A stretch of DNA of 64,000 bases from Minisyncoccota bacterium (GCA_035509435.1 DATJLR010000003.1:11853-75852), one strand, 5' to 3'. Positions 783 to 56,586 are shown, counted from the stretch's first letter. Notes: a model not told the origin generated them from the letters alone. Program-made: numbers and translations.

Positions 783-1556
783 TCAGCGAAAATTTTTCCG
801 ATCAAGCGTACTTGTCGGATAGATATCTTTTGGATAAATTTCGATAAGCCGAAGGTTTCTTTCCGCGCAAAATCTTCGCTTTTTCTCAAGCCTGCCGTCG
901 TATTTATTTTGTACGCCCGCCAACCCAAAAAATTCTACGACGATATTTGGCTGGATAAAGAAATCTGCGGTCATCTTAGTATCGCCATAGCGCCAGTGCC
1001 GCTCGTGCATAATATGCTTTTTCAGAAGCCAATCATCGATAACCTTCTCTGTAAATGAATCACATGGATGGCCATCGTCCGCAATGAACTTCCTTGCAAA
1101 TTGAACAGGATTTGCGTCGAATCCCGCGGCAATGATCGCCTGATTCCAGCCGCCAAACTCCCTTTTGAAAACCTTAAAGGAATTAAATTCGCGCTTGAGA
1201 GGTATGCGCCCATTCTTGCGATGAAATTCCTTAATTTTTTCAAGGAGGTCTTGGCGTGTATATCTTATAGGAGACCAAAACTCCTTTAGTTTGCGCCTCG
1301 CTCGCTCTTTTTCTTCGTCAGTCCACTCGTGCTGATGCCGCCTTTTTTGAATTTCGATATGTTGCTGTAATGACAACACTATTCCTTGGACCCAAATATT
1401 TACCGTACTCACGCTAACGTTTAATTCTCTGGCTATTTCGCGGTGAGTGCTTCCTCCCGATCGTAATTCTCGTGCTTTTTCCCGGATTGAAGAAGGGTAC
1501 CGCATTCCATTTCTTTTTTTTGCTATTTTCATGGATCCATTATAGAATTCATACAT
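783..1556 (-). CDS. stand-alone homing-endonuclease-like protein (N-terminal HTH + homing-endonuclease-associated repeat + C-terminal PD-(D/E)XK/Vsr-like nuclease)
   Basis: 257 aa, low GC. N-terminal 'GGSTHREIARELNVSVSTVNIW' HTH. 'LLEKIKEFHRKNGRIPLKREF...FKREFGGWNQAIIAAGF' fits the HE-associated repeat. C-terminal 'ADFFIQPNIVVEFFG...KKRRFCAERNLRLIEIY' is endonuclease-like. Confidence 0.55.
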   Translation of the reverse strand: MYEFYNGSMKIAKKRNGMRYPSSIREKARELRSGGSTHREIARELNVSVSTVNIWVQGIVLSLQQHIEIQKRRHQHEWTDEEKERARRKLKEFWSPIRYTRQDLLEKIKEFHRKNGRIPLKREFNSFKVFKREFGGWNQAIIAAGFDANPVQFARKFIADDGHPCDSFTEKVIDDWLLKKHIMHERHWRYGDTKMTADFFIQPNIVVEFFGLAGVQNKYDGRLEKKRRFCAERNLRLIEIYPKDIYPTSTLDRKNFR

Positions 1557-8019: not shown

Positions 8020-9014
8020 GCCGGTTTCACCAGATTGATCGGCGCGCCGTTCACGAACGCCACAATATTATCGATCGTCGTATCAAGGATGCGCAGGAAC
8101 GCCTCGCGCGTGTTGAACGCGTTGTGCGGCGTCACGATGACGTTCGGCAGCTGGATAAGGTCCGCGTCGAGCGACATATCCCCCGCCTTCATCGCTGCCT
8201 CTTCTTCCAGCACGTCGAGCCCGGCGCCCGCGAGCGTGCCATCCTTCAACGCCTCCACCACCGCCTTCGTCTCCACGATCGCGCCGCGCGCGGTGTTCAC
8301 GAGGATCGCGCCGCGCTTGATGAGCCGCGCATTGTCCATGTTGATGAGGTGATGCGTTGACGGAAGATACGGCGCGTGGATCGTAATGACGTCGCTCTTC
8401 TTGAGCAGATCCTCGAGCGAGAGGTATGGGAAGCCCATCTCCTTCGCGAACGCATCATCGTGATACACATCGTACGCGACGATGTTCATCCCGAACCCTT
8501 TCGCCATGCGGATCGCGTGCTTGCCGATGCGGCCGGTGCCGACGACGCCGATCGTTTTCCCCGCAAGGTCAAATCCGGTCAGGCCGTCCGTCGTGAACTT
8601 TCCTTCCACGCGCACGCGCGCGTTGGCCTTGATGATCTTGCGCGAGAGCGCGAGGATCAGCGCGAACGCGAATTCGGCGACGGTGTTCTCGCCGTACGCG
8701 GGTACGGACGACACCGGGATCCCGCGCGCGGCGGCCGCGGCGAGGTCGATATGATCAAAGCCCGTGGAAAGCGTCGCGATGAACTTGAGCTCGGGCAGCG
8801 CCGCGATCGTCGCCGCGTCCACCGGCGAGTCCATGAACACGCCCGCGATGTCAAAGCCGCCCGCATCGCCCTGGGGGATCCTGTCCTTGCTCAACGCCGC
8901 ATCCACAAAATCCACCGCCACATCCGCCGCCTTCAGTTTCGCGCTTCCCTCCAGGTACGACTTCGCCTCGTCGCCCCACCGCCCGCAGTTAAAGAAGGTC
9001 GCTTTGTGTGCCAT
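8016..9014 (-). CDS. D-isomer-specific 2-hydroxyacid dehydrogenase (D-lactate/glycerate/phosphoglycerate dehydrogenase family)
   Basis: 332 aa; 'GKTIGVVGTGRIGKHAIRMAKGFGMNIVAYD' Rossmann motif and catalytic 'R...E...H' arrangement; 4-nt overlap (ATGA) with eno. Confidence 0.85.
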   Translation of the reverse strand: MAHKATFFNCGRWGDEAKSYLEGSAKLKAADVAVDFVDAALSKDRIPQGDAGGFDIAGVFMDSPVDAATIAALPELKFIATLSTGFDHIDLAAAAARGIPVSSVPAYGENTVAEFAFALILALSRKIIKANARVRVEGKFTTDGLTGFDLAGKTIGVVGTGRIGKHAIRMAKGFGMNIVAYDVYHDDAFAKEMGFPYLSLEDLLKKSDVITIHAPYLPSTHHLINMDNARLIKRGAILVNTARGAIVETKAVVEALKDGTLAGAGLDVLEEEAAMKAGDMSLDADLIQLPNVIVTPHNAFNTREAFLRILDTTIDNIVAFVNGAPINLVKPA

Positions 9015-9096
9015 AGGGGTATTATAGCACTACCAGATGCTATTTTCTCGTGGAAAGCCGCGGCCTCATCCAAAGGTTTTTATTAAGATGCTGAGC

Positions 9097-9618
9097 TTAG
9101 ATGGGTCCGTAAGATATACCCGCAAACTGCTTATCAATATTACCCTGCGAACGTCTCCCCGGCATTACATCTGGCTTAAAGATTGCTTTCATCCAATATT
9201 TTTTGCCCCAAATATCTTGATAGGTTATATAAAGTTCTCCATTATTAAAAAGAGGGTTATTCCCTTCTGAGAAAGGGATCGTCGCCGAGCTTTCTAAAAA
9301 TTGAAAGCTGTCTGAGTATTTTTTAGGCAATATATCAAAGCTAAGATTCAAAATTCTGCCTATTGGTTTGATTTCCACTCTAATATTCTTAGCTAGCCCA
9401 TTTCCAGCATTTTCAAGACCAAAGTTTAATACTTGGGGATTTGAAACATCAGTGATAATAGGAACTAATATAGGGATCTGGCCTTCTCTATTTTGTCTTA
9501 GCGCCTTGAATGCATAATAGGCCGATAGACCGGCGACAATGACGGATAAAAGTGGCAGTAAGATTCCAATCCAGTTTAGAAATATAGGGCTCTGATGAAT
9601 TAAAAGATGATGGTGCAT
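9097..9618 (-). CDS. hypothetical membrane-anchored protein (low-GC islet)
   Basis: 173-aa ORF, AT-rich, N-terminal TM helix. Confidence 0.45.
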   Translation of the reverse strand: MHHHLLIHQSPIFLNWIGILLPLLSVIVAGLSAYYAFKALRQNREGQIPILVPIITDVSNPQVLNFGLENAGNGLAKNIRVEIKPIGRILNLSFDILPKKYSDSFQFLESSATIPFSEGNNPLFNNGELYITYQDIWGKKYWMKAIFKPDVMPGRRSQGNIDKQFAGISYGPI

Positions 9619-9634
9619 TGATGCGTTACTTTTA

Positions 9635-10093
9635 CTAATTACTCCACTCCGAACAAGATTGAGCCGCCTGTTGTGCTATAACCCTGTATTGAGGAGAAGC
9701 AGCACCATTAACATTGATGTAGGCGTTAGCGTCTATAAGCCATACCACGCCATAATTTTCTATGAGGTAATCGAAATCACAATTACATTTGCCCCATGTT
9801 CCCCCAGAAGATGTACAACCATTAACAAAAGAATTTCGTTGACTCTCGGCGGCAGGTGAAAAAGTCATAGGCGTGTAATTGTGGGGATAATCATAAGATG
9901 GTTGAACGGTTGCGTTTTGAACCTGGGGCTGAATTTGAACTGCCGATGACGTCTGGGTGAGTTGTTGAATTGAGTTGTTCGCGGAAGTATTTGTTAATTG
10001 CTCTTGATTGTTTAAATTTTGCCCCAATAAATAGGCTCCTATGGTTAGGGCTACAACCAAGACACCTACAACAAACCATTTCCCTCCACTCAT
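9635..10093 (-). CDS. hypothetical secreted/membrane-anchored protein (low-GC islet)
   Basis: 152 aa; N-terminal TM/signal; Q/N/T-rich linker; Cys-containing C-domain 'GCTSSGGTWGKCNCDFDYL'. Confidence 0.45.
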   Translation of the reverse strand: MSGGKWFVVGVLVVALTIGAYLLGQNLNNQEQLTNTSANNSIQQLTQTSSAVQIQPQVQNATVQPSYDYPHNYTPMTFSPAAESQRNSFVNGCTSSGGTWGKCNCDFDYLIENYGVVWLIDANAYINVNGAASPQYRVIAQQAAQSCSEWSN

Positions 10094-10185
10094 ATTTTTG
10101 TACTAAAATTATCAAACAAAAGTATCGTTTTAGCAATAGACGACCGACTCACGCTAGAACGAACTAGAAACAATCATGACTATTC

Positions 10186-17723: not shown

Positions 17724-18476
17724 ATGCATATAAAAGCGGTCATCGAACAGCTCGGATACAGCCCACAGGAGGCGGCGGTCTATCTTGCCGCGCTCGAGCT
17801 CGGCGGCAGCACCGCCACGGACATCGCCGCAAAGGCGAGGCTCCCGCGCACCACCGTCAACCTGCTCATCAGATCGCTCAACAAGAAGGGATTGATGAAC
17901 GCGTACATCCACCGCAAGCGCAAGATCTGGGCGGCGGAGAACCCCGAGCGCATGATGATCACCATCAAAGAGCGCGAGGCCGCGCTCAAGCTCGTGCTCC
18001 CCGAGCTGCAATCGCTCCGCCACGACACTGGCGTGAAGCCGACCGTGCGCACCTACGGCGGCGCCGACGAGATCAAGCAGATCATGAACGACATTCTGGA
18101 ATCCAAGCATCACATCTCCGCGATCCTTTCGTGGGACGAATGGATCAACCTGCTCGGCCGCGCATATATGGAGGATTTCATAGAGACGCGCTACCGGCAG
18201 TATCTGCGCATCCGCCTGCTCACGCCAAAATCTAAGACCGCGATGGCGCTCAAAGCGCGCGACGGCGAAGAGCTGCGCGTCACGCAATTTCTCCCTTCTT
18301 CCATCGCCATCAACAATTGCAATTTCATCTACGCCAACAAGGTGGCGATCATCTCGCTCAACAAAAAACGCCCGGTGGGCATTTTAATAGAAGATGAGGA
18401 CATCCATCACACCATGGAAGTCATGTTCGAGTCGCTCTGGAGCCAGAGCGGGCCGGGCGGCAGCGCTGCCAAGTAA
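17724..18476 (+). CDS. TrmB-family transcriptional regulator
   Basis: 250 aa; N-terminal wHTH 'LGYSPQEAAVYLAALELGGSTATDIAAKARLPRTTVNLLIRSLNKKGLM', typical of TrmB. Confidence 0.7.
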   Translation: MHIKAVIEQLGYSPQEAAVYLAALELGGSTATDIAAKARLPRTTVNLLIRSLNKKGLMNAYIHRKRKIWAAENPERMMITIKEREAALKLVLPELQSLRHDTGVKPTVRTYGGADEIKQIMNDILESKHHISAILSWDEWINLLGRAYMEDFIETRYRQYLRIRLLTPKSKTAMALKARDGEELRVTQFLPSSIAINNCNFIYANKVAIISLNKKRPVGILIEDEDIHHTMEVMFESLWSQSGPGGSAAK

Positions 18477-18494: not shown

Positions 18495-18535
18495 AAAAGG
18501 CGGCACAGGAAACCACATCCTGTGCCGCCTTTTTA
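18495..18535. terminator. bidirectional intrinsic terminator
   Basis: AAAAGGCGGCACAGG-aaaccacat-CCTGTGCCGCCTTTTT; 11-bp GC stem. Confidence 0.7.
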
Positions 18536-18557
18536 TCCACAGGTCGCCTTGTGCCTA

Positions 18558-18680
18558 TTCCTGCGCGTCGCCGTTGTCGTCCGTCGGCGAATCATCGGTG
18601 TTCTTTTCGATGTCCTCCGCGTCGATATCGCTCTCCAGGCTGTCATCCTTCGCCTCTATGTCTTCGTCGTCTTGTGCCAT
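18558..18680 (-). CDS. 40-aa hyper-acidic small protein (putative; last gene of helicase operon)
   Basis: MAQDDEDIEAKDDSLESDIDAEDIEKNTDDSPTDDNGDAQE*; 23 of 40 residues are D/E; GC-rich third positions; stop 20 nt before the terminator. Not in the ORF track (under 60 aa). Confidence 0.35.
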
Positions 18681-18752
18681 ATCATTGGTTTATATTTCGG
18701 CGACCTTTTCGGACTGCTTACATAATACCCTATCTGGGATTAAATCTTTCAG

Positions 18753-20303
18753 TTAAAAATCCGCCACGGGCATCTCGTCGATGTCGGTATAGTCAATGCG
18801 TAGGTCGTCGAATACTGTGCCTGCGGTGTTATGGCCGCCGAGAGCGCCGGGTGCGACGCCGCCCGCGCCGCCCGATTCCTCACCTGCGCGACGGATGAAG
18901 TCGCCCTGCGCGGCGCGGAGCTCGTCTTCGCCAAAGCTCGCCAGATACTGCTCGGTGCGCGCGGAATCGGCGCGGAAGCCGGCGTCGAGCGCCCGAACGC
19001 GCGGCGACACTTGCAGGGCAAGCGCGTTGAAACCGATGAGCGAAATGTTGCGCAGCTCGCGCACGCGGGAGAGCGCCACGTAACCCATCCCGCGGTCGAA
19101 CGCGCGGCCAAGATCGATCACGGCGGCATCGAGCGTCATCCCCTGGCTTTTGTGGATCGTGATCGCCCACGCGAGCTTGAGCGGCAGCTGCGAGACGCTC
19201 GCCATGCGGTCGCGGCTCTTGCCGTCCTTGCCGCGGCCGCCGTCGCTGTCTCCCACGCGCCACTGGAAGCGGCCAAGCGTGATGCGCTTCTTGTCGAAAG
19301 TCATAATGACGGGATTCGCCTCGATGGCGCTCGCTGCCGCACCGCTCGCGCTGGCAGAATCGCCGTCGCCGCCCATCTCAAAGTCCACGACTTCGCCGAG
19401 CGTGCCGTTCACATATCCAACGCCCATGTTGTTTTTGGTGAACATCACGCGCGCGCCGATCTTGAGCGTCAGCTTGTCCGGCACGTCGTTGTCCTTCTTG
19501 AGCTTGTCCACCAGCACCGCGGGGCCGTTCGTGTACGCTTCGTAGATCACGTCCGGCGTTGCAAGCTTACGCAGTTCCGCGGCGTTGATCTCGTCCACGT
19601 TCTCGCGATGCGTGTAGAGCCGCGCGATGCCGATCGGCGCGGCGACCGTGGCGCCAATGCGGGCGTTCAGCTTTGCCGTGATGTCCGGCGTCACTTCGCC
19701 CGCGCGGATGGCGTCCAGGATCTCGAGCAGGTCATCGCCACTGCTGCTGCCCCTACCCGCAGCGCTTCCGCCCACCTGGCGATGCTGCTCCGTCAAATAG
19801 CACACGCGCATCTGCGCATTCTTCCACGCGGCGGAATCGATCACAAACTTCTCGGACTCGCCGTTCACTGGTGGAATCTGGAAGAAGTCACCGCAGCACA
19901 CGATCTGCAATCCGCCGAATGGCTCGCTGGAATTCCGCGCGGTGCGGCAGATCAGGTCCACGCGATCGAACTGCTCGGGATGCAGCATGGAGATCTCGTC
20001 TATAATAAGCACCCGTGCGCGGCGGATGCGGTCGGTCAGGTACTCGTTCGCGCGCACGCGGTCGCGCTCCTGCTTCTCGTCGGGGATCGGCCCGCGCGTC
20101 AGCCCCGCCCACGAATGGAGCGTGCGCCCGGAAAGGTGCGATGCGGCGATGCCGGTGTAGGCCGTCACGGCCACCTCCACCTCGTGGTCCTCAAGGAACC
20201 GGATGTACTCGTTCAGCAGGTACGTCTTCCCCGCCCCGGGCGCGCCGGTCAGGAACACGTTCTCGCCCGTCTTAAGGATGGCCAAAGCGGTGGATTGGAG
20301 CAT
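18753..20303 (-). CDS. Pif1/RecD-family (AAA_30/UvrD_C_2) ATP-dependent DNA helicase
   Basis: 516 aa; Walker A 'GAPGAGKTYLL', Walker B 'IIDEISML', motif V/VI 'WAITIHKSQGMTLD'. Confidence 0.8.
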   Translation of the reverse strand: MLQSTALAILKTGENVFLTGAPGAGKTYLLNEYIRFLEDHEVEVAVTAYTGIAASHLSGRTLHSWAGLTRGPIPDEKQERDRVRANEYLTDRIRRARVLIIDEISMLHPEQFDRVDLICRTARNSSEPFGGLQIVCCGDFFQIPPVNGESEKFVIDSAAWKNAQMRVCYLTEQHRQVGGSAAGRGSSSGDDLLEILDAIRAGEVTPDITAKLNARIGATVAAPIGIARLYTHRENVDEINAAELRKLATPDVIYEAYTNGPAVLVDKLKKDNDVPDKLTLKIGARVMFTKNNMGVGYVNGTLGEVVDFEMGGDGDSASASGAAASAIEANPVIMTFDKKRITLGRFQWRVGDSDGGRGKDGKSRDRMASVSQLPLKLAWAITIHKSQGMTLDAAVIDLGRAFDRGMGYVALSRVRELRNISLIGFNALALQVSPRVRALDAGFRADSARTEQYLASFGEDELRAAQGDFIRRAGEESGGAGGVAPGALGGHNTAGTVFDDLRIDYTDIDEMPVADF

Positions 20304-20306
20304 GTT

Positions 20307-20672
20307 CTAAAATTTTTCAATGTCCTTTGCTAGTTCTCGAAAGATGAAGACCCCTAATACAAGAACCGCTACGACATACAAGATTCCAACCGCCCAATGC
20401 GAAGAGAATTCAACTTCAAACAAAAATTGATATATACCAATGATTACTTGCACCAGCGCGAAGGCGATTAAAACCAACGAATATTTTCTGGTCGATTTAT
20501 CGAGTTCGTGAGCCGTTTTTCGATTCCTCAAAGCGGCCTTAATTTGAAGGATCGTTAATTTATGCATTTTCTGTTCCTCGACCATACCACTACTTGGAGG
20601 CCCTATGGTCTCAATTTCCCCTAGAAGATCTTGATCTTCAGATAGATATAGCTCCATGTTCTTATTATCCAT
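20307..20672 (-). CDS. small membrane protein, hypothetical (AT-rich, 3 nt upstream of helicase start)
   Basis: 121 aa, about 40% GC, two C-terminal TM helices. Confidence 0.45.
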   Translation of the reverse strand: MDNKNMELYLSEDQDLLGEIETIGPPSSGMVEEQKMHKLTILQIKAALRNRKTAHELDKSTRKYSLVLIAFALVQVIIGIYQFLFEVEFSSHWAVGILYVVAVLVLGVFIFRELAKDIEKF

Positions 20673-20752
20673 GCAAAAAGTTTACGCCACATCATAAAAT
20701 ACACAAGATTGACGAATTCGAAAGAATATATAAGATTGAGGGACGTACTAAA

Positions 20753-21709
20753 ATGGAACTCTTCTCGAAAAGATACTCGGCAAAAGGGCCTCGCAATGAC
20801 GTTATTCTTTCCGATACACTTAGAAAGCGTCTGGAACAGGAGTTAAAGTTCATAACTTCAAGTAAAGATTATATTGAAGCCTTTCTTTTGGTTGATAATG
20901 AAAAAGAGAATAAGATTTATTTGCATTCTCTTACCCTACGAGATTTAAGTTCTCGGGAGTTGGGTTATGATTTAACGTCCTTGGTTTACTGTAAAACTAT
21001 GGATTTCAATGCGAACCCCGATGATAATCAACTTCTAGACCTTATAGAACTATTAATCATTTTTTGTAAAGAAATAAACCGTAAAGAATTAATTGAGAGG
21101 TTACAAAACATCTTCAAGGAAGAGGGAGATCAATTTATAATTCACAATTTCATAATTTTTAAGAAGGATGAAACTGGGCTGAAATCTCTCGTGCCCTTAA
21201 TTAAAGATAAGAACCTCCAAGTCAAATTAGAGGAATACTTTACTGAAGCATCGAGAGGTAGTAAACCAAATTATGAGATGCTAGCCCGTATTGCTGCGGA
21301 TATTGTACAGATACTCTTTAGTGCTCCAAAGCAAAAAGAAACAAAAAAATATTCTGAACAATTATGTAGCGATATTGCATATAAATGGACGGATAAAAAG
21401 AATGCCCAAGCGTTGGCAATTCTCCTTAGTGAAACCGTTAAAAATGCTAAGGAACTAAGTAATCAGATTAGTAATATTCGACATACAGACAGAAGCACTA
21501 TACCAGTTAGAACGCCTAGCCTATATAGATTAATTGCCTTAAAAAATTCTTCAATTGCTGAAGTGGTTATACTTTCCTTGCCAGAAAATTATATTTTAGA
21601 CCAAAATCCGGAAGAGATTAAAAATCACTATCTCGGTAAATACAACCTCAAAGCTGATAATGGCTGGTTGGTTGAAGATGAAATAAAGCCGGAAGATATA
21701 CCTTTCTAA
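20753..21709 (+). CDS. hypothetical protein (AT-rich island)
   Basis: About 318 aa from the ATG at 20753, preceded by GAGGGA 9 nt upstream. The ORF track's 20594 start overlaps the opposite-strand gene. No recognisable motif. Confidence 0.45.
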   Translation: MELFSKRYSAKGPRNDVILSDTLRKRLEQELKFITSSKDYIEAFLLVDNEKENKIYLHSLTLRDLSSRELGYDLTSLVYCKTMDFNANPDDNQLLDLIELLIIFCKEINRKELIERLQNIFKEEGDQFIIHNFIIFKKDETGLKSLVPLIKDKNLQVKLEEYFTEASRGSKPNYEMLARIAADIVQILFSAPKQKETKKYSEQLCSDIAYKWTDKKNAQALAILLSETVKNAKELSNQISNIRHTDRSTIPVRTPSLYRLIALKNSSIAEVVILSLPENYILDQNPEEIKNHYLGKYNLKADNGWLVEDEIKPEDIPF

Positions 21710-21739
21710 AGCAAGACCAGATAGGCAACGACTCAATCT

Positions 21740-22927
21740 CTAAAAATTCTTAACAATAAGATGCTGCACGGCCCTATCATTCCTACCTTTCATATTGTAA
21801 GTGTATTTCTTATCGAACGAAGAGATGTTTATATTCTGCTTGCCTTTGTATAAGCCGTAGATGAACGACGTCCTTTTTATCACCAAAATAAATTTGGCCT
21901 TAGTGGTATATAAATAACGCGCAAGCCGAAATTGGTCATCACGATCAAAGCTTTTCTTTTCGTAATCACTGAAATCGGTATCGTATGGAGGGTCGAGGAA
22001 AATAAAATCTTTTGAAGAAAGCTTCAGTTTATTGAGAAATGTTTCAAAATCCTCGTTGTAAATTACCGCTCCTGCCAAGAGATTATGGGCCTCCAAAGAA
22101 AAGAGCCGGTCGACTTTCTTTCTAAAATTTTTAGTGTTGTACCCTATCCCTCCATATGGGATATTAAATTCTCCGTTGGCGTTAAATCGGAACATGGATC
22201 CATAGCAAAACTCTCGGATGAAATAATAGTTTGCGATGGCTTTTGCGCGGCTGATATGGTTCATTCCCCTTTTTTCATTCATAACATCCCTAAAATGCAT
22301 ATAAAATCCACTGCGAAATGCAGTCTCAATGTTCTTATGAAGATCCTCAATTGAGATCCTGCCGCTACTGAACTCAAGCTTTTTGACACGTGTGATCTTA
22401 TCAATGAGATTGTCAATGATGCGCTTTTCAAGATTATTCCTGTCTATACAAAAGTCCGCCCTGAACAGCCCATTGAATGCCTGAATTTGTCCGTGTATGT
22501 AATCTTCCGTAAGGCGACGCAGATCGTTTTTGCTAATAGAATCGGCAGCATAACGGGCGTACAAAGAGATGAACTGCCTCTGGAAAAGAAGGATGTAATT
22601 CGGAATTTTCTCCCAATTGAAGACATACTCATAGATTTCCTTAGAAAATTCTTTTGTATTATATTTCCCACCTACGAAGCGGTAAAAATCCATCAGCTCT
22701 ACGGCAATATCGTTGATGGCGGCTCTTTCTGGTTGTAACTCAAAAAATATCGCACCACCACCAAAGAACGGCTCAATATAGCGATCAAACGCAGGAATGT
22801 GATGCTTAATAAAAGAGAATTCCCGTTTTTTTCCGCCAGGCCACTTGATCAATGCCTGTGTATTAGGTGTGGATATCTCCCGATTGGAAGGTCGCAAGAG
22901 GTTCAAATCAATGTGCTGTTTTTGCAT
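21740..22927 (-). CDS. Dam-like (D12 class) N6-adenine DNA methyltransferase
   Basis: 395 aa; 'IKWPGGKK', 'EPFFGGGAIFFEL' (SAM binding), catalytic 'FLDPPYD'. Confidence 0.85.
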   Translation of the reverse strand: MQKQHIDLNLLRPSNREISTPNTQALIKWPGGKKREFSFIKHHIPAFDRYIEPFFGGGAIFFELQPERAAINDIAVELMDFYRFVGGKYNTKEFSKEIYEYVFNWEKIPNYILLFQRQFISLYARYAADSISKNDLRRLTEDYIHGQIQAFNGLFRADFCIDRNNLEKRIIDNLIDKITRVKKLEFSSGRISIEDLHKNIETAFRSGFYMHFRDVMNEKRGMNHISRAKAIANYYFIREFCYGSMFRFNANGEFNIPYGGIGYNTKNFRKKVDRLFSLEAHNLLAGAVIYNEDFETFLNKLKLSSKDFIFLDPPYDTDFSDYEKKSFDRDDQFRLARYLYTTKAKFILVIKRTSFIYGLYKGKQNINISSFDKKYTYNMKGRNDRAVQHLIVKNF

Positions 22928-23630
22928 TTTCTATAATTTTCTTTAGTTGTGAAATTTTTAAAATGTTATTGCGCTGTCGATGAACCATCCGATGGCAGTT
23001 TGAACACAGAGGAACGACTTTCTTCAACGCTTCATCCGCCGCCATCTTTTCTCCGGACGCTTCATGCTGATGAATAGGATGCGTGTGATGAATCTCGATA
23101 TAATCGCGGCCGCGTTCGCCGTAGAATTTCAAGAAATCGAACTCGCACGCTATGCAAGGAATTTTTCCGCCCTTCTTAAAGTGCGCCCTGGCAAGCTGGA
23201 TCAGTTTTCGCGACCGCTCTCTGAACGCAACATTTTTTGTCGAGAGAAATCCTTCTTCAACGATGATGTCTTTGTAGTCATCTTTGAATTCTTGCTCTCT
23301 TATCTCTTCACTGAAGCCCTGCTCCTGAAGCGCTTCAACAACTTCTTCATAACCAGCATTCAAATATCTTCTACCCTCGTCCGTAATGAAGAAAAGTTTG
23401 TCCTTATATATCGCAAGATTCTTCTTCTCTAAGGTATCGTGCGATTTTAGGTTGCGCACTTTTTGGCTGAACTTTGTATCGGTGCGGCCGCTGAGTATTT
23501 CAGCATCTTCCCCTTCGGGCTTCAGTGTGTCAGTTAATTCCTTGATAAGATACTCGGTCGGAACGCCTTCCGGATGGCGCTCGATGATCTTAAGGGCGGG
23601 AATTACGAGGTCCGATTCGGCGTAAATCAT
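22908..23630 (-). CDS. HNH-family endonuclease (probable restriction endonuclease partner of the Dam-like MTase)
   Basis: 240 aa; 'CIACEFDF...IEIHHTHPIH...PLCSNCHRMVH' HNH/zinc motif; 20-nt overlap with the MTase gene; AT-rich. Confidence 0.75.
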   Translation of the reverse strand: MIYAESDLVIPALKIIERHPEGVPTEYLIKELTDTLKPEGEDAEILSGRTDTKFSQKVRNLKSHDTLEKKNLAIYKDKLFFITDEGRRYLNAGYEEVVEALQEQGFSEEIREQEFKDDYKDIIVEEGFLSTKNVAFRERSRKLIQLARAHFKKGGKIPCIACEFDFLKFYGERGRDYIEIHHTHPIHQHEASGEKMAADEALKKVVPLCSNCHRMVHRQRNNILKISQLKKIIENAKTAH

Positions 23631-23735
23631 ACTCTAAGTTTAGCATATAGCCCCGAGAGGTGAATCTACTTGATATCCCCATGTCGATGAGGATATCCAC
23701 ATAGTATCTTATGCACTAGAACTGTCAAAAAATTT

Positions 23736-24190
23736 TTAATCCTTTTTTAACGAATCCCCCCATCCCCACTCGCTGTACCCCACGCCTTCGCGGTAGCAAC
23801 GGATCGCCTCGCGGATATAGGGAATGGTGTTTGCGGGCAAGGCGTCGAGCGGGAACCAGCGCAGGTCGTCGCACTTGCCGGGCTCCATGTTGGCCGCTCG
23901 CCGCTCCACGCCGCGGGCTCAAAGAAGAAGTCCAGCCGCTCGTCGTCGGCGCGGCGGTGCATCACAACCTTGAGCCGCAGGTCCGCAGCCCCGATCGTGA
24001 CGCCCGACTCCTCCATCGCCTCCCGCGCGGTGGCCGCCGTGAGCGCCTCGCCGCCATCGGCGTGACCGGCCACCAGGCTGTAATTGCCATCCTCGTAGCC
24101 GGTGTTTGCGCGGCGGAGCATCAGGATCTTTCCGTCCTTCACGAAAAGCACGTAGACGGAGGCGATAAGCTTGAAGCGATCGGCGGTCAT
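23736..24190 (-). pseudogene. Nudix hydrolase with apparent 1-nt frameshift near 23895-23905
   Basis: From ATG 24188-24190 the frame reads a Nudix fold ('MTADRF...LVAGHADGGEALTAATAREAMEESGV') up to '...[11 protein letters not shown]'. The conserved C-terminus '[42 protein letters not shown]' continues in the adjacent frame (stop at 23736-23738). Confidence 0.6.
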
Positions 24191-24210
24191 GAAAACATTG
24201 TAGCACCTTA

Positions 24211-24246
24211 TAAAAAAGAAAAGGCGCATCCCCGGAGGAATGCGCC
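24211..24246 (-). terminator. intrinsic terminator of gene 24269..25192 (copy 1 of GGCGCA...TGCGCC hairpin repeat)
   Basis: Minus-strand GGCGCATTCC-TCCGG-GGATGCGCC followed by TTTTCTTTTTTAT. Confidence 0.6.
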
Positions 24247-35673: not shown

Positions 35674-38600
35674 CTAATGCGATCCGTGTCCCTGCAGTGT
35701 CCCTAAGTACTGCTCGAGCAGGAGAAGCAATTGCTGCTGCAACGCGGCGATCTCCTGTTCAAGGGCATCTTGCCCCGTCGTGCTTGCGCCCAGCACCTCC
35801 CCTCCATGGCCGCCGAAGGGACCGCTCCCCACTATCACGATGAACGGCGAGGAGAAGAAGCTGTTGCCATCGGCATGGTACGTTTCCGTGACCACGCAGT
35901 TCCCTATATCTCCCGCCATCACGCCGTCCACGCTGTCGCACTGCCCATTGGTCGTTTCGTTATAATGCGACGGCCCGGAGACGTTCACGTAGTACGGCGT
36001 GTTCGGATCGATCGTGAGCGTCGTGCCGGACGCGCTGCCCGGGAATGTCGACGTCGGGCTCGGATGCGTCGCGAGCACGTTCACGGTAAAGTCGGACGAG
36101 GTTGCGGTGCCGCTTGCGGAGTTATCCACGTTGACCACCACGTTGAGGAAGCTCGTGGTCGCCGGAGCAAGCGAGAATGTCACCGTGTAATCCTGGGTCG
36201 TTGAGCTGTCCTGCGCCGTTACCGCCACCGTCGCGGTTCCCGTCGTGCTCGTGGCCTGCGTGATCACCTCGGTCGCGTTCGGATCCGTCGTTGTCGCCGT
36301 TACCGTGGGAACCGTGTTCGTGTTGAACGGAAGAATGACGTCGTACGCGGTCGTACCCGGATCGAATGACGGGTCAAGCGCTCCCGCGGAGACGCCGAGC
36401 GCGCTCAACGTGTCGTCGGTGTTGAGGCACAGCGTGGTGAACGATTCAACCGCGCCCGGATACCACTCACCGCCGATCTCGGACCATGCCACGAAGTAGT
36501 ATGTGGTATCCGGAGCGAGATTGCTCAGCGATTCGCTGAACGCGCCGCCGGCCCCTGCGGCGCCGAGGCCGCTGTCATGCGACCAGCCGGTCGCCGGGAA
36601 TTCGGTGGCGTTCTGGCCGGCATCGAACGGACCCGCCGGGGTCGTCCCCCACCAGAACGAAGTGTTCTCTGCAGTGGTCGAACCGTTCGTACCGTTCACC
36701 GTCGCGCCGAACTGGCCGACGTTCGTGGCTGGATCGGTCGTCACGTACGTAGGCAAAGCGGTGGTGAATGACTGCATCGCACCCGGATACCACGTCCCAT
36801 CAACATCAGACCATGCCACGTAGTAATAGGTGACGCCGGGTTGGATCGCGGGCATCGTGCCGGCGACCTGGCCGTGCACGACCGCGTCGGTCGTGAGCGA
36901 CGAGAGCGATGCGGAGAACGGCGTGCCGGAAGCGATCGCGCCGAGGTCAGGCGTGGAATATACGCCGACGGGGATCACCGGCGTCGAGGTGCTGAACGTG
37001 GACGTCGACACCCAGAACGAATGGCCGGCCGCGTCATAATCATCGTTCGTGCCGTTCAGCATCGCGTCGGACATCGTGATGCCGGTCGGCGCATCGGTCG
37101 TCACGTACACGGGCGCGCCGCACGCGTACACGTCAACCGACAGCGTTCCGGTATTGTCGCCGTAGAACGACGCGTCCGGCGCGGGCGATGCCGCGGTGGC
37201 GTCGCCGTCGAACACCAGGAGGTTGATCGGATTTCCGGTTCCAGTGTAGAGATAGGAATATGCATGCGACGGCTGATATGATCCCCAATTGACGAACTGG
37301 CCGTCCAGCTGGAGCTTGAACTCGTTCGATCCCAAAAGATATGGAGCGATGTTGTATCCCTGCATGTATGTCGTCCAGCTATCCACGCTCGCGTACGCCG
37401 GATCCACAAAGTTGAAACCGCCGTTGTCCCATGTGCCGGACGCGACAAGGAGGTATTGCTGTCCGTTCGCCAGGCTGTTCGTGCCGACGGTCGGAACGTC
37501 CGATGCCGAATCAACCGTATCTGTTTCCACGAGCGAGGGGAAGGTTCCGGCCGGGCACGTCGTGAGCGCCGGCGTCGGTGCCGTATCGATCGTCATGGCC
37601 CAGACCGGGCTCCACGCGCTCATGGTGCCGCTCGCGTCTATGGCACGGACCTGCCAGTACCATGTACCATCCGGCGCGCCGGTGGAATGGATGGAAGACG
37701 TGGTAAGCGTTCCCGAATCCCAAAGGCCGGTCGTAAGAACACCGTCCGTCTCCGCCGGATTCATAGACGAATGGAACTCATACGTGATCGTGCTCGTCGG
37801 GGTTTCCGTGGACGGGTTCCACGTGAAATAGAAATCGTTCGTCGGCTCAATATCGCCGTTCACCGGACTGATCAATGTCGGCACCGAAGGCGACGGAGGG
37901 ACATTCTCTATATCATAGTTCTTGAAGTAATTATCGCCCGACCCGGAAGGATTGCCGGCCGCGTCAAAGACCTTGCCGACATCAAGGGTGGAACTGCCAT
38001 TATCGAGCAGGGTCGTATCGACGGTGAATGTTCCCGTACCGTTCGAAAGATCTACGTTTGCGCCCTTGCTCTTCTGCGCTCCCCCGTTGTTATAGAGGTA
38101 TACCCATACATTTTTGTTCTTGGTTGGATCGAGCGGATTGTTATCGGTCACGTTGATCGTGAACGTCGTTGTCCCGCTCAACGTGCTGCCGGGAGCCGGC
38201 GTAACGGTCACCACCGGAGCTATCGTGTCAGGGATCACCTCCGACGAAGTAAGGCTGATGTTATCAAAGAGGAATCCGTATCCCGCGTCCGCCGGATGCG
38301 CCGCACCGCGCGCCTGGATGATCATCGTCTTCACGATGCGCGGACTCTGCTCCGCCGACGCCTCACTGTCGTACCAATAATAATTCTCCCAGCTCGTGCC
38401 GGTGTGAACGAGGGTTCCGTCGATGTAAACTTTCACGATGTCGTTGGACACCCCATCCACGGCGTCGAACGTCAGCTTGATGGTGTGCGGGACCGTGCGA
38501 TCCAGATTGGTCGCGATCTGCGTCTCCACAAAAGTCGCGGGATTGGTCGTCCCCTCCACATCATCGAAGAACACATTAATGCCGCTCGCGCTATCCTCAA

Positions 38601-39069
38601 AGCGGAGATAGCTCATGCGCGAACCGTCGCCGCGATCCGGCGCCACCGAGACCTCAAGGCCGGGCTGCGGCGTGCTGCTTGCCACCGCGATATCGAACTG
38701 CATCTCAAAATGATTCTGTTTGGTGCCCGGCGAGAACGCTCCGTTCGTGGAGCTCGTTTCGCCGACAGAATCGGTCAGTGGCGACGCAAATATCCAATCA
38801 CCGAAAGAACCGCTCGTGACCGCGTCCGATACCCTGAGCGCCTGCTGGCCAAATCCCGCAGGCGATCCGAAATCGCTCGTGTTGACGATTGCCTCGTCGT
38901 ACGGGCCGGTCGCGCTCCATCCATTCTGGCCATTGACGCTCCCCAGTGAATACGTCGACGTGCTGAACGTGATGGGACCGACCGTGTCCGCATGCGCAAC
39001 GTTTATAACTGCCACCGACACAAAAAGCAAAACCGAACCGACCATCCCAACGGATAGGAATTTTTTCAT
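35674..39069 (-). CDS. giant secreted cell-surface protein with multiple Ig/FN3/cadherin-like beta-sandwich repeats
   Basis: 1131 aa; signal peptide; repeated 'W..G..YY(F)VAWS.(V/I)(D/G)G.WYPGA..SFTT' modules; 'TAYDVILPFNTNTVPTVTA' cadherin-like repeat; C-terminal coiled-coil 'EQEIAALQQQLLLLLEQ'. Confidence 0.7.
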   Translation of the reverse strand: MKKFLSVGMVGSVLLFVSVAVINVAHADTVGPITFSTSTYSLGSVNGQNGWSATGPYDEAIVNTSDFGSPAGFGQQALRVSDAVTSGSFGDWIFASPLTDSVGETSSTNGAFSPGTKQNHFEMQFDIAVASSTPQPGLEVSVAPDRGDGSRMSYLRFEDSASGINVFFDDVEGTTNPATFVETQIATNLDRTVPHTIKLTFDAVDGVSNDIVKVYIDGTLVHTGTSWENYYWYDSEASAEQSPRIVKTMIIQARGAAHPADAGYGFLFDNISLTSSEVIPDTIAPVVTVTPAPGSTLSGTTTFTINVTDNNPLDPTKNKNVWVYLYNNGGAQKSKGANVDLSNGTGTFTVDTTLLDNGSSTLDVGKVFDAAGNPSGSGDNYFKNYDIENVPPSPSVPTLISPVNGDIEPTNDFYFTWNPSTETPTSTITYEFHSSMNPAETDGVLTTGLWDSGTLTTSSIHSTGAPDGTWYWQVRAIDASGTMSAWSPVWAMTIDTAPTPALTTCPAGTFPSLVETDTVDSASDVPTVGTNSLANGQQYLLVASGTWDNGGFNFVDPAYASVDSWTTYMQGYNIAPYLLGSNEFKLQLDGQFVNWGSYQPSHAYSYLYTGTGNPINLLVFDGDATAASPAPDASFYGDNTGTLSVDVYACGAPVYVTTDAPTGITMSDAMLNGTNDDYDAAGHSFWVSTSTFSTSTPVIPVGVYSTPDLGAIASGTPFSASLSSLTTDAVVHGQVAGTMPAIQPGVTYYYVAWSDVDGTWYPGAMQSFTTALPTYVTTDPATNVGQFGATVNGTNGSTTAENTSFWWGTTPAGPFDAGQNATEFPATGWSHDSGLGAAGAGGAFSESLSNLAPDTTYYFVAWSEIGGEWYPGAVESFTTLCLNTDDTLSALGVSAGALDPSFDPGTTAYDVILPFNTNTVPTVTATTTDPNATEVITQATSTTGTATVAVTAQDSSTTQDYTVTFSLAPATTSFLNVVVNVDNSASGTATSSDFTVNVLATHPSPTSTFPGSASGTTLTIDPNTPYYVNVSGPSHYNETTNGQCDSVDGVMAGDIGNCVVTETYHADGNSFFSSPFIVIVGSGPFGGHGGEVLGASTTGQDALEQEIAALQQQLLLLLEQYLGTLQGHGSH

Positions 39070-53614: not shown

Positions 53615-55354
53615 CTAATTTACGGTCACGTGGATCTTGTTCGGGTTCGAAGGGATGGTGAATATCCAGGAGGGCCACATGGAGATCTCGCCGTCCTGAA
53701 GCTGAGGCAATGCCGCGATCGTGCTGCGCGCGCTCCCGATGCTCTGGCCTTCGATGCTCGTCGTAAACTCCGCCACGGAGAATGCCGGCTCGAGCGAACC
53801 CTGCGCGGAAAGCGCGAATGTCACCTGGCCCGTCTTGAAGTTCGGCACCACATTGGTATAGGTGGGATCGATCGTCTTGAATGTGGAGCTCACCTCCGTT
53901 GCCTGCGCGAGCGAGAGCAGATAGTTCTCGAGCGCGGACTGGTCGAACCCGATCGCCTCGAGCGTCGCGGCGCCGAAGACGGTAAAGTTGCCGTTCGCGT
54001 CGGTGGAGGTATTTACGGTAAGCGTGGTGATCGTGGTGGTCGCGGCGCCGTCCGGGATCTCGAAGTTGTTCGGATACGTTCCGGCAAAGCCGCTCGTGAG
54101 TTCGGCATCGAGGAGCGCCGTGGTCGACGCTTTCGCCGCAGCGATGTCCGCCGCGGTAGGCGTCGCGCGCTGGCCGATGAAACCGCCCGTCGTGGATGCG
54201 GTGATCGTGCCGTAGAATCCCGCTTCGCGGCCCGGATCGCTGTCGAATCCCGGGATGGTCAGCTTCGCGACCGGTCCGATGTTGTAATCCGGCCCTGCCT
54301 GATCCGCCACGATGGGCGCGTTGATCGACGACGGCGTAAGCGTACCGTCGGCGGCCTTCGCCTCGCCGGGCACCGTGACGTTCGTCGTGATACGGAAGAT
54401 CTGGCCGGCAGGCGTGAGGAAGCGTGTCGTCGCAACCAATTCCTGTGGCGCGGCGCTGTAATCGTTATAGATAGTGATCGTCCCCTGCGCTTTCTGCGAG
54501 ACCTGCTGGACGGACGAGCCGGGGAATGATTCCGTCAGGTTCTTCGTGGTAGTGAACACCTGGGCGGGAATGATATTCGTCGTCGGATCGATGCCCACCG
54601 CGTTCTTGCTCGCGGTGAAATTATTGGAATAGCTCCACGGCGTCTGCTTGAAGTTGATCGTGATGTTCGCGTGATCGAAGAACGCGCTCGCGACCCACGC
54701 GCCGAGCGCTATGAGCACGATGACGCCGACAGTGATCCAGACAGCCTTCTTTGGAAAACGGCGGGGTCCGCGGTCATCATCATCAAGGTCCGGCTGGCCG
54801 TCAAAGAACCGGCTGCGCAGCGAGCGCGTTTTTTCCTTATCGGCATCGTCATCGTCATCATTGAACGATGATCCGCCTCCGAAGGTTTCCGCCGGCTCCT
54901 CATCGTCAATTCCGCCGTCATCCGTGACATCGATATCCTCATCCGCCGCCTGCGACGCTTTCTTTCCTTTTTTTCCAACCGCGAGATGCACCACTTTTTT
55001 GGTGCGCCCTTCCGCCTCGCCGCGCTCACGATCGCTCTCGGGCACCCCGTCACTGTCGCGGCGCGAAACAATGTCGGAAAATCCTCCGGCGCCCCGGACT
55101 CCCTTCCACAATGGATGGCTCGCCTCGATCCCGCTCTCTTTCGCAAATGCGAGAATGCCTTCGTCCACGGATTCCACAACCACAGTGCGGCCTGCCGAAT
55201 CGGTTTCGCGCTTTAAAAGATGGAAATTGCTGACGGATCGCCCAAGCGCCGACCCCTTCGGGACGACGATCGATACCTCGTCATCCGGCTCGTTCAAGAT
55301 GCGGTCAATGACCTCCGCAATGCCTTCGTTCTTGTCTACGATGATCTTTTTCAT
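53615..55354 (-). CDS. hypothetical bitopic membrane protein (N-terminal cytoplasmic domain, acidic linker, TM, large Thr/Ala-rich extracellular domain)
   Basis: 579-aa ORF; strongly acidic low-complexity region 'NDDDDDADKEK...DLDDDDRG'; single TM 'AVWITVGVIVLIALGAWVASAFF'. Confidence 0.5.
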   Translation of the reverse strand: MKKIIVDKNEGIAEVIDRILNEPDDEVSIVVPKGSALGRSVSNFHLLKRETDSAGRTVVVESVDEGILAFAKESGIEASHPLWKGVRGAGGFSDIVSRRDSDGVPESDRERGEAEGRTKKVVHLAVGKKGKKASQAADEDIDVTDDGGIDDEEPAETFGGGSSFNDDDDDADKEKTRSLRSRFFDGQPDLDDDDRGPRRFPKKAVWITVGVIVLIALGAWVASAFFDHANITINFKQTPWSYSNNFTASKNAVGIDPTTNIIPAQVFTTTKNLTESFPGSSVQQVSQKAQGTITIYNDYSAAPQELVATTRFLTPAGQIFRITTNVTVPGEAKAADGTLTPSSINAPIVADQAGPDYNIGPVAKLTIPGFDSDPGREAGFYGTITASTTGGFIGQRATPTAADIAAAKASTTALLDAELTSGFAGTYPNNFEIPDGAATTTITTLTVNTSTDANGNFTVFGAATLEAIGFDQSALENYLLSLAQATEVSSTFKTIDPTYTNVVPNFKTGQVTFALSAQGSLEPAFSVAEFTTSIEGQSIGSARSTIAALPQLQDGEISMWPSWIFTIPSNPNKIHVTVN

Positions 55355-55407: not shown

Positions 55408-56586
55408 TCAATCCGCCAGCCAATGCAGGCGCCGCCGCAACTTGCGGTTGATCTCCGAATTGCTCTTGTCGAAATATGCCTCCAGGAAGGGCAGAAGGTG
55501 CCGTGAGAGCGCCGCATCGGAGCCATAGCTCCCCTGTCGCTCCGCAAAACCCAGCTGCGTTAAAATTTCTTCCATCGGAAAACGGTCGAATGACGCCCCG
55601 CCGTGTTTATACGGCAACGCGAACGGCAGCTCGTGCTCCGCGTCCATATATACATGCCCTTTCAGCTTTCCTTTGCCTACTTCCTTCAAAAACTGTTCCG
55701 TCACCGGATCAATGATCCGCTTGAACGCGCGGGCAACGCTTTCGGACATCGCGCCCGCGAGATACGAGCGGTACATCTCCTTCGCCGCCCCCTCGGATAC
55801 GCCGAGCTCGGCGGCGATCCGCAAAAAGAGCAGGCCGAAGTTCCATTGCAGGCGCTCGCGATAGAGCACCGGATGGCCATCCTTTGTTTTCTGGAGCACA
55901 AAGAGCGCCGCGCCGCGCGGGCCTTCATCCACGATAAGGTTCAGCGGCAGTTTCCGGGCGCGCGCGAGGGAGGCCAGGCGCGCCTGTGCCGACTCGGCAA
56001 AAAAGAAATCGTCCGGCGCGTTGAAAAATTGCCGGAGGTCGCGGAAAAGGTCTCGCCCGGTAAATGTGAGCTCGAGCAGGAGCGATATTTTTTTTCCGGT
56101 GAACCCGACGGGGTTCACCACCAGATTACCGTCCACTGTGAAGTTGCGCGCTTTCGCGCCGACCATGATCGTGTCGAGCTCGTGGATGCGCAGCCGGGCC
56201 GCCGCCTCCGCGCGACACTGGTTGAAGATCTTTCCCATCGCCTGCGCGATCATGTTCTCGAGTTCCGGCAGGACGATCTCGCTTTTTTCGGTGCCGTGCT
56301 CGCGCGCGAGGTCGAGCGGGATCGGGATCGTCGTCGCGAGCGACGAGTCAGCGACGGCGATCACCTTGCGGTGCGATTTGAAAAGATACGCGCCCTCCCA
56401 TGATTTCTGCGCCACGCTCCGCATGGGCGATGCGAAGAACTTCTTGAGGTCCAGATTGCGCGCCAGTTTTTCGAAGATGATGTTCCGGTCCTCGTCCACG
56501 GAGAGGAACAGTCCGTCGGTTCCCGCCGGCCCGATCGCCAGAACCAAAAATTTCTCGCGGGGTTTGAAGAGAGTGGGCTTCTTCAT
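55408..56586 (-). CDS. hypothetical protein, possibly actin-like ATPase fold (FtsA/PilM-like N-terminus)
   Basis: 392 aa; N-terminal 'FLVLAIGPAGTDGLFLSVDEDRNIIFEK' resembles the phosphate-1 loop of FtsA/PilM; remainder unassigned. Confidence 0.4.
   Translation of the reverse strand: MKKPTLFKPREKFLVLAIGPAGTDGLFLSVDEDRNIIFEKLARNLDLKKFFASPMRSVAQKSWEGAYLFKSHRKVIAVADSSLATTIPIPLDLAREHGTEKSEIVLPELENMIAQAMGKIFNQCRAEAAARLRIHELDTIMVGAKARNFTVDGNLVVNPVGFTGKKISLLLELTFTGRDLFRDLRQFFNAPDDFFFAESAQARLASLARARKLPLNLIVDEGPRGAALFVLQKTKDGHPVLYRERLQWNFGLLFLRIAAELGVSEGAAKEMYRSYLAGAMSESVARAFKRIIDPVTEQFLKEVGKGKLKGHVYMDAEHELPFALPYKHGGASFDRFPMEEILTQLGFAERQGSYGSDAALSRHLLPFLEAYFDKSNSEINRKLRRRLHWLAD

Follow-up and report, generated by a model that had tools for sequence, protein, structure and literature searches.

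A conserved acidic microprotein gene downstream of a Pif1 helicase in Candidatus Paceibacterota and the separate origins of an operon-like gene arrangement

Characterised DNA mimic proteins have a folded surface on which the charges are arranged as in DNA (PMC3902945); in Ocr, two monomers of 116 amino acids (aa) form a dimer (PMC3439906). Some mimics are found on mobile elements, and others, such as DMP12, DMP19 and SAUGI, are folded proteins encoded on bacterial chromosomes (PMC3643605, PMC3384305, PMC3902945). Here we describe a small, highly acidic gene located downstream of a Pif1-family helicase gene on a stretch of 64,000 nucleotides (the window), which is ordinary chromosome of a metagenome-assembled genome of Candidatus Paceibacterota [Candidate Phyla Radiation (CPR)]. 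Two other groups of proteins are relevant for comparison. Acidic disordered tails, such as the C-terminal tail of SSB and the acidic C-terminal region of the Firmicutes RNA polymerase delta subunit, compete with nucleic acid for the surface to which it binds. Of the prokaryotic ubiquitin-like modifiers, Pup ends in GG[E/Q], with a Glu/Gln dimorphism at its last residue, and UBact ends in R[ST]G[E/Q]; the amino-group carrier LysW ends in EDWGE. In a preliminary description of the window the acidic gene was presented as the last member of a three-gene operon, following a small transmembrane protein and the helicase, and its product was compared to Ocr/ArdA-like anti-restriction proteins. The three open reading frames (ORFs) are indeed present on the minus strand. 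The explanation which we prefer, with moderate confidence as a whole, is that these ORFs have three different origins and that the acidic protein is a polyanionic microprotein which docks on a partner protein.

The acidic gene (18555..18680 including the stop codon, minus strand) was recovered in an ORF scan and encodes a protein of 41 aa (MAQDDEDIEAKDDSLESDIDAEDIEKNTDDSPTDDNGDAQE) with 13 Asp, 6 Glu and 2 Lys residues, which amounts to 46% acidic residues and a net charge of about -17. The preliminary description had counted 40 residues and 57% Asp and Glu, and had considered the gene to be unannotated, whereas it is predicted by the ENA gene caller and is present at NCBI as 'hypothetical protein VMA75_03330'. 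The use of the GC-rich codons of the genome was described correctly: the GC content at third codon positions (GC3) is 0.76, compared to 0.75-0.84 in neighbouring core genes, including the helicase gene. A profile search identified 46 clusters of related proteins with a length of 31-78 aa (median 39), none of which has a name or a recognised domain. Members of this family are typically 34-45 aa long and contain 35-50% Asp and Glu. An exhaustive hidden Markov model (HMM) search of 1.84 billion representatives resulted in only 9 matching representatives (clustered at 50% identity), all of them small family members, and fusions of the acidic motif to larger proteins were not found among these representatives. 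No known family was recognised for the peptide in Pfam (E ≤ 0.01), in PADLOC, PHROGs and NCBIfam (E ≤ 0.1), or among PDB sequences searched with the family profile at E ≤ 10. The motif pattern gave zero matches in IMG/VR, and tblastn searches with the acidic gene against phage and plasmid collections yielded nothing meaningful.

The alignment of 43 family members, which was also used for composition counts and as AlphaFold2 input, shows that conservation is concentrated at the C-terminus. The last 15 residues form the motif NTDD[ST]PTDDNG[DE]Ax[E/Q], with 7 invariant columns and a further 5 in which conservation reaches at least 90%. Of the aligned proteins, 37 end in Glu, 5 in Gln and 1 in Gly. 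The N-terminal part is acidic and variable in both length and sequence. Cys, Trp, Phe and Tyr are absent from all 43 sequences. Gene context was compared among 11 distinct loci, consisting of the window and loci L162, L163, L164, L165, L167, L170, L172, L175, L179 and L180, in which the neighbouring genes were surveyed up to approximately 6 kb around the acidic gene. The start (MA...), the reading frame and the C-terminal motif of the acidic ORF are kept in all 11 loci. Substitutions were analysed by codon position over the last 15 codons of the gene in nine distinct loci. The variable columns comprise 3 first, 1 second and 14 third codon positions, the ratio of nonsynonymous to synonymous variation (pN/pS) is 0.12, and the alternative frames are full of stop codons. 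This third-position-biased variation together with the low pN/pS indicates that selection acts on the protein. An ORF of 41 codons is not significant by its length alone; it is the combination of conservation and substitution pattern which identifies a real gene. Conservation in related genomes was the check set beforehand for this ORF, and its frame, start and motif turned out to be under strong purifying selection. The acidic ORF is thus a genuine, conserved gene for an uncharacterised microprotein restricted to a clade of Paceibacteria. Its peptides DDSLESDIDAEDIEK and NTDDSPTDDNGDAQE are candidate markers for metaproteome data.

A Pif1 gene is located directly upstream of the acidic gene in seven of the 11 loci (window, L162, L163, L164, L165, L175, and L180; in L163 with an insert), at a distance of 72-115 nt and with no terminator in between. 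In L162, L164 and L165/166 the helicase is followed by a small ORF with the same start, frame and ending. No Pif1 gene is present within the surveyed distance in the other four loci (L167, L170, L172, and L179), and the acidic motif is intact there. Downstream of the acidic gene, a DUF167 gene follows after 6-30 nt in six loci [L163, L164, L165, L167, L172, and, frameshifted, L179 (6121-6346)], and a terminator hairpin lies directly 3' in the remaining five, all without DUF167 (window, L162, L170, L175, and L180). The gene order TrmB / class II ribonucleotide reductase / dihydroorotate dehydrogenase (DHODH) is kept in L162-L165, L167, L172, and L179. The downstream flank of L175 and L180 is wholly different, and Pif1 (64-67% identical to the helicase of the window) is still found upstream, so that the adjacency looks ancestral. 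The Pif1 and DUF167 neighbours assort independently, and the acidic gene is the constant element of these loci. It is thus a self-standing core gene rather than an obligate partner of the helicase. The host-like GC3, the conserved synteny and the lack of viral, phage or plasmid matches together argue for a core gene, and the suggestion in the preliminary description of a mobile-element self-protection module is not borne out by them.

The acidic gene seems to carry its own transcription signals. It is separated from the stop codon of the helicase gene by an AT-rich spacer of 72 nt (18681..18752, minus strand), which was compared in a leader alignment of 9 loci. The spacer contains a conserved promoter-like block on the minus strand, composed of AGATTTAAT (18747-18739) and TATTAT (18727-18722), with the form AGATTTAAT ... 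GTAT.AT across loci. It further contains a 5' box of 12 nt (18708-18697, minus strand), which has the form AAAGGTCGCCGA in the window, and a proximal -10-like TATAAA (18694-18689, minus strand) within an A-rich stretch, 8 nt before the ATG of the acidic gene. An invariant leader box, AAAGGTCGYCGA, is present in nine loci at 27-45 nt before the acidic ATG and is degenerate in two (GGTCGTC in L179 and CGTCGAA in L180). In the window and the fetched loci it is restricted to the leader of the acidic gene, save for one stray match in L020. A search of the leader against Rfam gave only a sub-threshold chance match, and RNAalifold found one weak 6-bp pairing without covariation and did not place the box in any covarying structure. 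The spacer block, which was not flagged by a consensus promoter scan, would function as the promoter of the acidic gene.

At the other end of the gene, the preliminary description had noted a strong bidirectional terminator, and this is supported by a hairpin at 18495..18533 (both strands) with a 16-bp stem, including A/T-tract pairs, and a 7-nt loop. It folds with -37.5 kcal/mol (z -4.4), and none of 200 shuffled sequences folds as well; a simple terminator consensus scan did not list it. The hairpin, bordered by an A-tract at one end and by a T-tract at the other, lies between convergent genes, so that it can terminate both the acidic gene and the convergently transcribed gene for a TrmB-family transcriptional regulator (17724..18476, plus strand; Pfam TrmB, 4.6e-10). 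With a conserved promoter-like block upstream and, in five loci, a terminator hairpin directly after it, the acidic gene appears to be independently transcribable.

The helicase gene (18753..20303, minus strand) encodes a full-length PIF1-family DNA helicase of superfamily 1B with a length of 516 aa. The protein matches PF05970 with 125.7 bits (cut-off 25.9; E 2.8e-36), the Pif1 2B domain (Pif1_2B_dom, PF21530) with 25.4 bits (cut-off 23.9) and a PHROG of Dda-like helicases (2.7e-64). Its translation contains Walker A (GAPGAGKT) and Walker B (DEIS) motifs and, between motifs II and III, the region DRVDLICRTARNSSEPFGGLQIVCCGDFFQIPPV, which we take to be the Pif1 signature. In domain matches, motifs and size it resembles bacterial Pif1 proteins, and orthologues with 64-88% identity align over the full length. 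The helicase is an ordinary, intact core enzyme of the Pif1 family. Its only unusual features are loops of low complexity, rich in Gly, Ser and Asp, and an acidic tip at the C-terminus, DYTDIDEMPVADF (18756-18794, minus strand), which is conserved and reads DY(T/A)D(I/V)DE(M/L)PV(A/T/L)DF in these orthologues. The tip recalls the Phe-ending C-terminal tip of SSB and could be a protein-docking tail. A fusion of helicase and acidic peptide by read-through or frameshifting was considered and rejected: the two genes are in frame in the window, but two stop codons lie between them, and the frame relation is lost in L165 and L175.

What distinguishes the helicase gene of the window from its relatives is the loss of its native promoter to an inserted island. 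The region in front of the helicase start was compared between the window (20304-20320), L162 (4980-5000), L180 (3500-3518) and also L163, L164, L165, and L175. The element CTATA(C/A)TAnCCCCAC precedes the helicase ATG in L162-L165, L175, and L180. It includes a -10 hexamer at a distance of 8 nt from the start codon, which suggests a promoter of the leaderless type. The window lacks this -10 element, and island sequence reaches up to the ATG of the helicase, which indicates that the insertion has replaced the native helicase promoter in this genome. The helicase gene is probably transcribed here by read-through from the island.

The island is an AT-rich, laterally acquired segment (20305..23700, right boundary approximate) situated between a NUDIX gene (23747-24229) and the helicase start. 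Its GC content is 0.35-0.46, compared to approximately 0.58-0.64 in the flanks. Adjacent to the helicase it contains an ORF of 121 aa with two C-terminal hydrophobic segments (20307..20672, minus strand), the stop codon of which lies 3 nt before the helicase ATG. This membrane-protein ORF was skipped by the ENA gene caller and is annotated at NCBI as VMA75_03340. The GC3 of the ORF is 0.41, and that of the rest of the island is 0.31-0.49. Next to it lie a gene for a protein of 318 aa without a match in any library (20753-21709, plus strand), a gene for a Dam-like N6-adenine methyltransferase (21740-22927, minus strand; MethyltransfD12, 1.9e-34; PADLOC MTase_II, 3.7e-53) and a gene for an HNH-type endonuclease (22908-23630, minus strand; PADLOC mREase_IV, 1.5e-5, and HNH PHROGs). 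No direct repeats flanking the island were found. The same slot upstream of the helicase is filled by a Dcm-type methylase, EcoRII-C and an OLD-like ATPase in L162 (188-4613), by a type I HsdR and a YgjP-like protein in L164 (1-4967), by Fic/RhuM in L165 (3780-4754) and by unrelated small genes in L163. As the cargo is different in every relative, the slot between the NUDIX gene and Pif1 is a hotspot of this clade for defence genes and further variable cargo.

The membrane ORF has few relatives. Two homologues were found among 5.8 billion proteins, and one of these (P0168, read on contig L178) is in an unrelated context. The membrane ORF is not found upstream of the helicase in any of the orthologous loci. 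With its foreign composition and its absence from the orthologous loci, the ORF is not a conserved helicase partner but cargo of an AT-rich restriction-modification/defence island. A match to RTasSLATT in PADLOC (E 1.8e-3, 16 bits) is a weak lead only, as the score with NCBIfam SLATT_5 is 13.3 bits against a cut-off of 60. The divergent pair formed by this ORF and the 318-aa gene could be an uncharacterised defence pair; a conserved two-gene module was not apparent, since the gene beside the membrane ORF homologue in L178 is unlike the 318-aa gene.

Taken together, the operon of the preliminary description joins three genes of different origin, namely a foreign island ORF, a core helicase gene and a separate small gene. 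At the upstream end, translation of the helicase may be coupled to that of the membrane ORF in this genome, but the upstream ORF is a foreign element which is absent from all orthologous loci. Co-transcription of the two, as suggested in the preliminary description, may be real here, and would then be a recent accident rather than a designed operon. At the downstream end, the operon is interrupted by the spacer with its conserved promoter-like block. As a unit the three genes do not hold together either, as the membrane ORF precedes the helicase only here and four loci have the acidic gene but no helicase near it.

The composition of the acidic family allows a proposal for how its members might act. 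AlphaFold2, run with the alignment of 43 sequences, returned a model with a mean confidence (pLDDT) of 68, a predicted template modelling score (pTM) of 0.23 and a single helix of 6 residues. The microprotein is thus predicted to be intrinsically disordered, and a fold might be induced on binding. We propose that it is a soluble polyanionic peptide, which would dock on a partner protein through its invariant C-terminal motif, a putative short linear motif, and would owe its bulk negative charge to the variable acidic N-terminal part. With the two together it would cover a cationic surface of the partner that binds nucleic acid, or compete for that surface. Candidate clients are Pif1, the gene for which is adjacent in seven of the 11 loci, and DUF167, a basic protein (pI 9.9) with an adjacent gene in six; neither would be obligatory in cis. 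The term nucleic-acid mimicry would apply only loosely, in the sense of an acidic disordered tail which works in trans. Such a tail, or a regulatory microprotein that acts like one, is the nearest functional analogy which we can offer, and it is meant as a resemblance, not as membership. Like the tails of SSB and RNA polymerase delta, the peptide is polyanionic, has no hydrophobic core and carries a conserved terminal motif after a variable acidic spacer. Unlike them, it is a free-standing gene product of 34-45 aa for which no fusions were found, and its motif matches no known tip, that of SSB being ...DDDIPF.

Confidence in the docking mechanism itself is low, and several observations weigh against this proposal or the gene model behind it. 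The acidic start codon lacks a Shine-Dalgarno sequence in its vicinity, and the transcript start is ambiguous, as either the distal TATTAT or the proximal TATAAA could set it. Docking by charge is a generic deduction from composition, and metal binding or use as a covalent tag would fit the same sequence features. The helicase is acidic overall (pI 5.5) and is not thereby singled out as a client. All members of the family come from one close clade, so that the adjacency to Pif1 and DUF167 may simply be inherited synteny. A literature search on the function of DUF167/YggU and on acidic microproteins in Patescibacteria found nothing relevant.

The alternative that survives best, although we consider it unlikely, is that the peptide is a dedicated regulator or antagonist of Pif1, which would bind to the DNA-binding groove or another site of the helicase and tune or block unwinding, the two forming a functional pair. 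Adjacency in most loci is in line with this, in particular as it includes the deepest-branching members with rearranged downstream flanks. Six further clusters of Pif1 orthologues have the length of their longest contig in common with a cluster of the acidic protein, which suggests that both lie on the same contigs, and the known range of the acidic family coincides with this clade of Pif1 orthologues. Should every member of the clade have the acidic gene, adjacency to Pif1 would say little about function. The four lineages with an intact, constrained acidic gene and no Pif1 nearby argue against a dedicated pair, as do the PemK-like gene that is inserted between Pif1 and the acidic gene in L163 (6585-6971) and the promoter-like element which each of the two genes has for itself. 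Pif1 homologues elsewhere also manage without the acidic neighbour. Broad genome and metagenome collections gave only distant Pif1 homologues (≤45% identity), the close orthologues having been obtained by exact-sequence look-up, and an acidic ORF was not found downstream in any of 149 such distant loci, other Paceibacteria included; tblastn of the acidic family against these 149 loci gave chance-level matches only. A related and somewhat more speculative possibility, which we regard as rather improbable, is that the free polyanion docks on a DNA-processing enzyme and gates its access to DNA, with Pif1 as the prime candidate.

Binding or buffering of divalent cations is a further alternative, in which the carboxylates of TDD-x-P-TDD-NG-D and of the acidic N-terminal part would chelate Ca2+, Mg2+ or another metal. 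The two TDD repeats and the extreme density of carboxylates are compatible with such a role, and D-x-N-x-D (D34, N36, and D38) resembles the first five positions of calcium loops of the DxDxDG type. The motif is non-canonical, with Ala in place of the expected Gly, and the chain is too short to include the distal ligands. No metal-related genes were seen in the neighbourhood, and Pro, Thr and Asn residues are strictly conserved, which would be more in keeping with a motif recognised by a protein than with mere chelation. Metal binding seems improbable to us.

Still less credit is given to the idea that the peptide is a covalent tag or carrier that acts through its C-terminal carboxylate in the manner of Pup, UBact or LysW, with the terminal Glu or a deamidated Gln being ligated to a lysine or a metabolite. 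The peptide shares with Pup and UBact that it is small, acidic and disordered and ends in Glu or, in a minority, Gln, on an invariant C-terminus. Unlike in these proteins, neither Gly-Gly nor Arg-[ST]-Gly precedes its last residue, and it has no sequence similarity to them; the family ends in G[DE]Ax[E/Q], which also differs from the end of LysW, and one member ends in Gly. It has no Cys residues for a zinc ribbon, unlike LysW. Genes for PafA, Dop, Mpa, an ATP-grasp ligase or the proteasome were not called within approximately 6 kb of the acidic gene in any of the 11 loci, and none was matched among the 49 ORFs of the window which were scanned against Pfam; genomes with Pup or UBact have a ligase or deamidase of the PafA/Dop type and usually proteasome genes, commonly close by. 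A Pup-like Glu/Gln tag that relies on another ligase is ranked as less likely than the gating of a DNA enzyme and, overall, as very unlikely.

The Ocr/ArdA-like reading of the preliminary description fares slightly worse. In this reading the peptide is a DNA-mimic anti-restriction protein or protects a mobile element. Its 19 acidic residues out of 41 and its net charge are what would be expected of such a protein, and a high density of Asp and Glu is common to it and Ocr/ArdA, DMP12, DMP19, SAUGI, and Ugi. In addition, the acidic gene adjoins a slot that has repeatedly received restriction-modification and other defence cargo. Net charge is where the agreement with the Ocr/ArdA group ends: neither sequence nor profile similarity to DNA mimics or to any other family was detected, the AlphaFold2 model is essentially unstructured rather than DNA-like, and carriage on mobile elements was not observed in IMG/VR or the phage and plasmid collections. 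The known mimics are folded (PMC3902945, PMC3439906), whereas the peptide, at 34-45 aa, is two to three times smaller and predicted to be disordered. The GC3 of the gene is like that of the host, and its chromosomal position is constant whichever island is present. An anti-restriction role is highly improbable.

That the locus encodes no functional protein, the ORF having arisen by chance or serving the DUF167 gene downstream as a leader peptide or as a cis-regulatory RNA, is the least credible reading, since its very short length, the lacking Shine-Dalgarno sequence, the closely spaced DUF167 gene in six loci and the invariant RNA-level box in the leader stand against an amino acid sequence that is kept through many synonymous changes, a gene that is retained with a terminator directly after it in the five loci without DUF167, and a leader with no Rfam family, no covarying structure and no attenuation structures found. 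A chance ORF is ruled out by the codon-substitution pattern.

Outside the three genes, the window contains core genes for RpoA, the ribosomal proteins S4, S11 and S13, AlaRS, RpoD, DnaG, enolase and PPDK, as well as genes for a class II ribonucleotide reductase and an AddA-like helicase-nuclease. A second AT-rich patch (9001-10100; GC 0.40), which probably is a further small insert of acquired DNA, contains two ORFs without Pfam matches (9097-9618 and 9635-10093, minus strand). For three large ORFs on the minus strand (35674-39069, 53615-55354, and 55408-56586), which encode 1131, 579, and 392 aa, no Pfam family was matched at E ≤ 1e-4. An ORF at 783-1556 (minus strand) with a homing-endonuclease-associated HNH_repeat and a helix-turn-helix motif adjoins tRNA-Pro (GGG) at 1572-1643, the only tRNA gene of the window. 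Among the related loci, the gene for the AddA-like helicase-nuclease in L170 (2580-5648) is split into five called fragments. This split and the frameshift in the DUF167 gene of L179 may be assembly errors or pseudogenes; the records concerned (contig_25608 and contig_46037) are possibly long-read assemblies.

The arrangement in the window, in which a recent island insertion has produced an operon-like array, is a caution for guilt-by-association in metagenome-assembled genomes. At the same time, a small uncharacterised protein family is now defined, with a clear motif and a test for membership. If the polyanionic microprotein does act as an acidic tail in trans, it would be the smallest chromosomally encoded nucleic-acid mimic, and it would be found in the genome-reduced bacteria of the CPR. 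Regulation of a DNA enzyme by the microprotein, if true, would provide a handle on the role of bacterial Pif1 helicases. It would also be a minimal, genetically simple case in which a disordered polyanion serves as a regulator, in bacteria with very few regulators of the classical kind.

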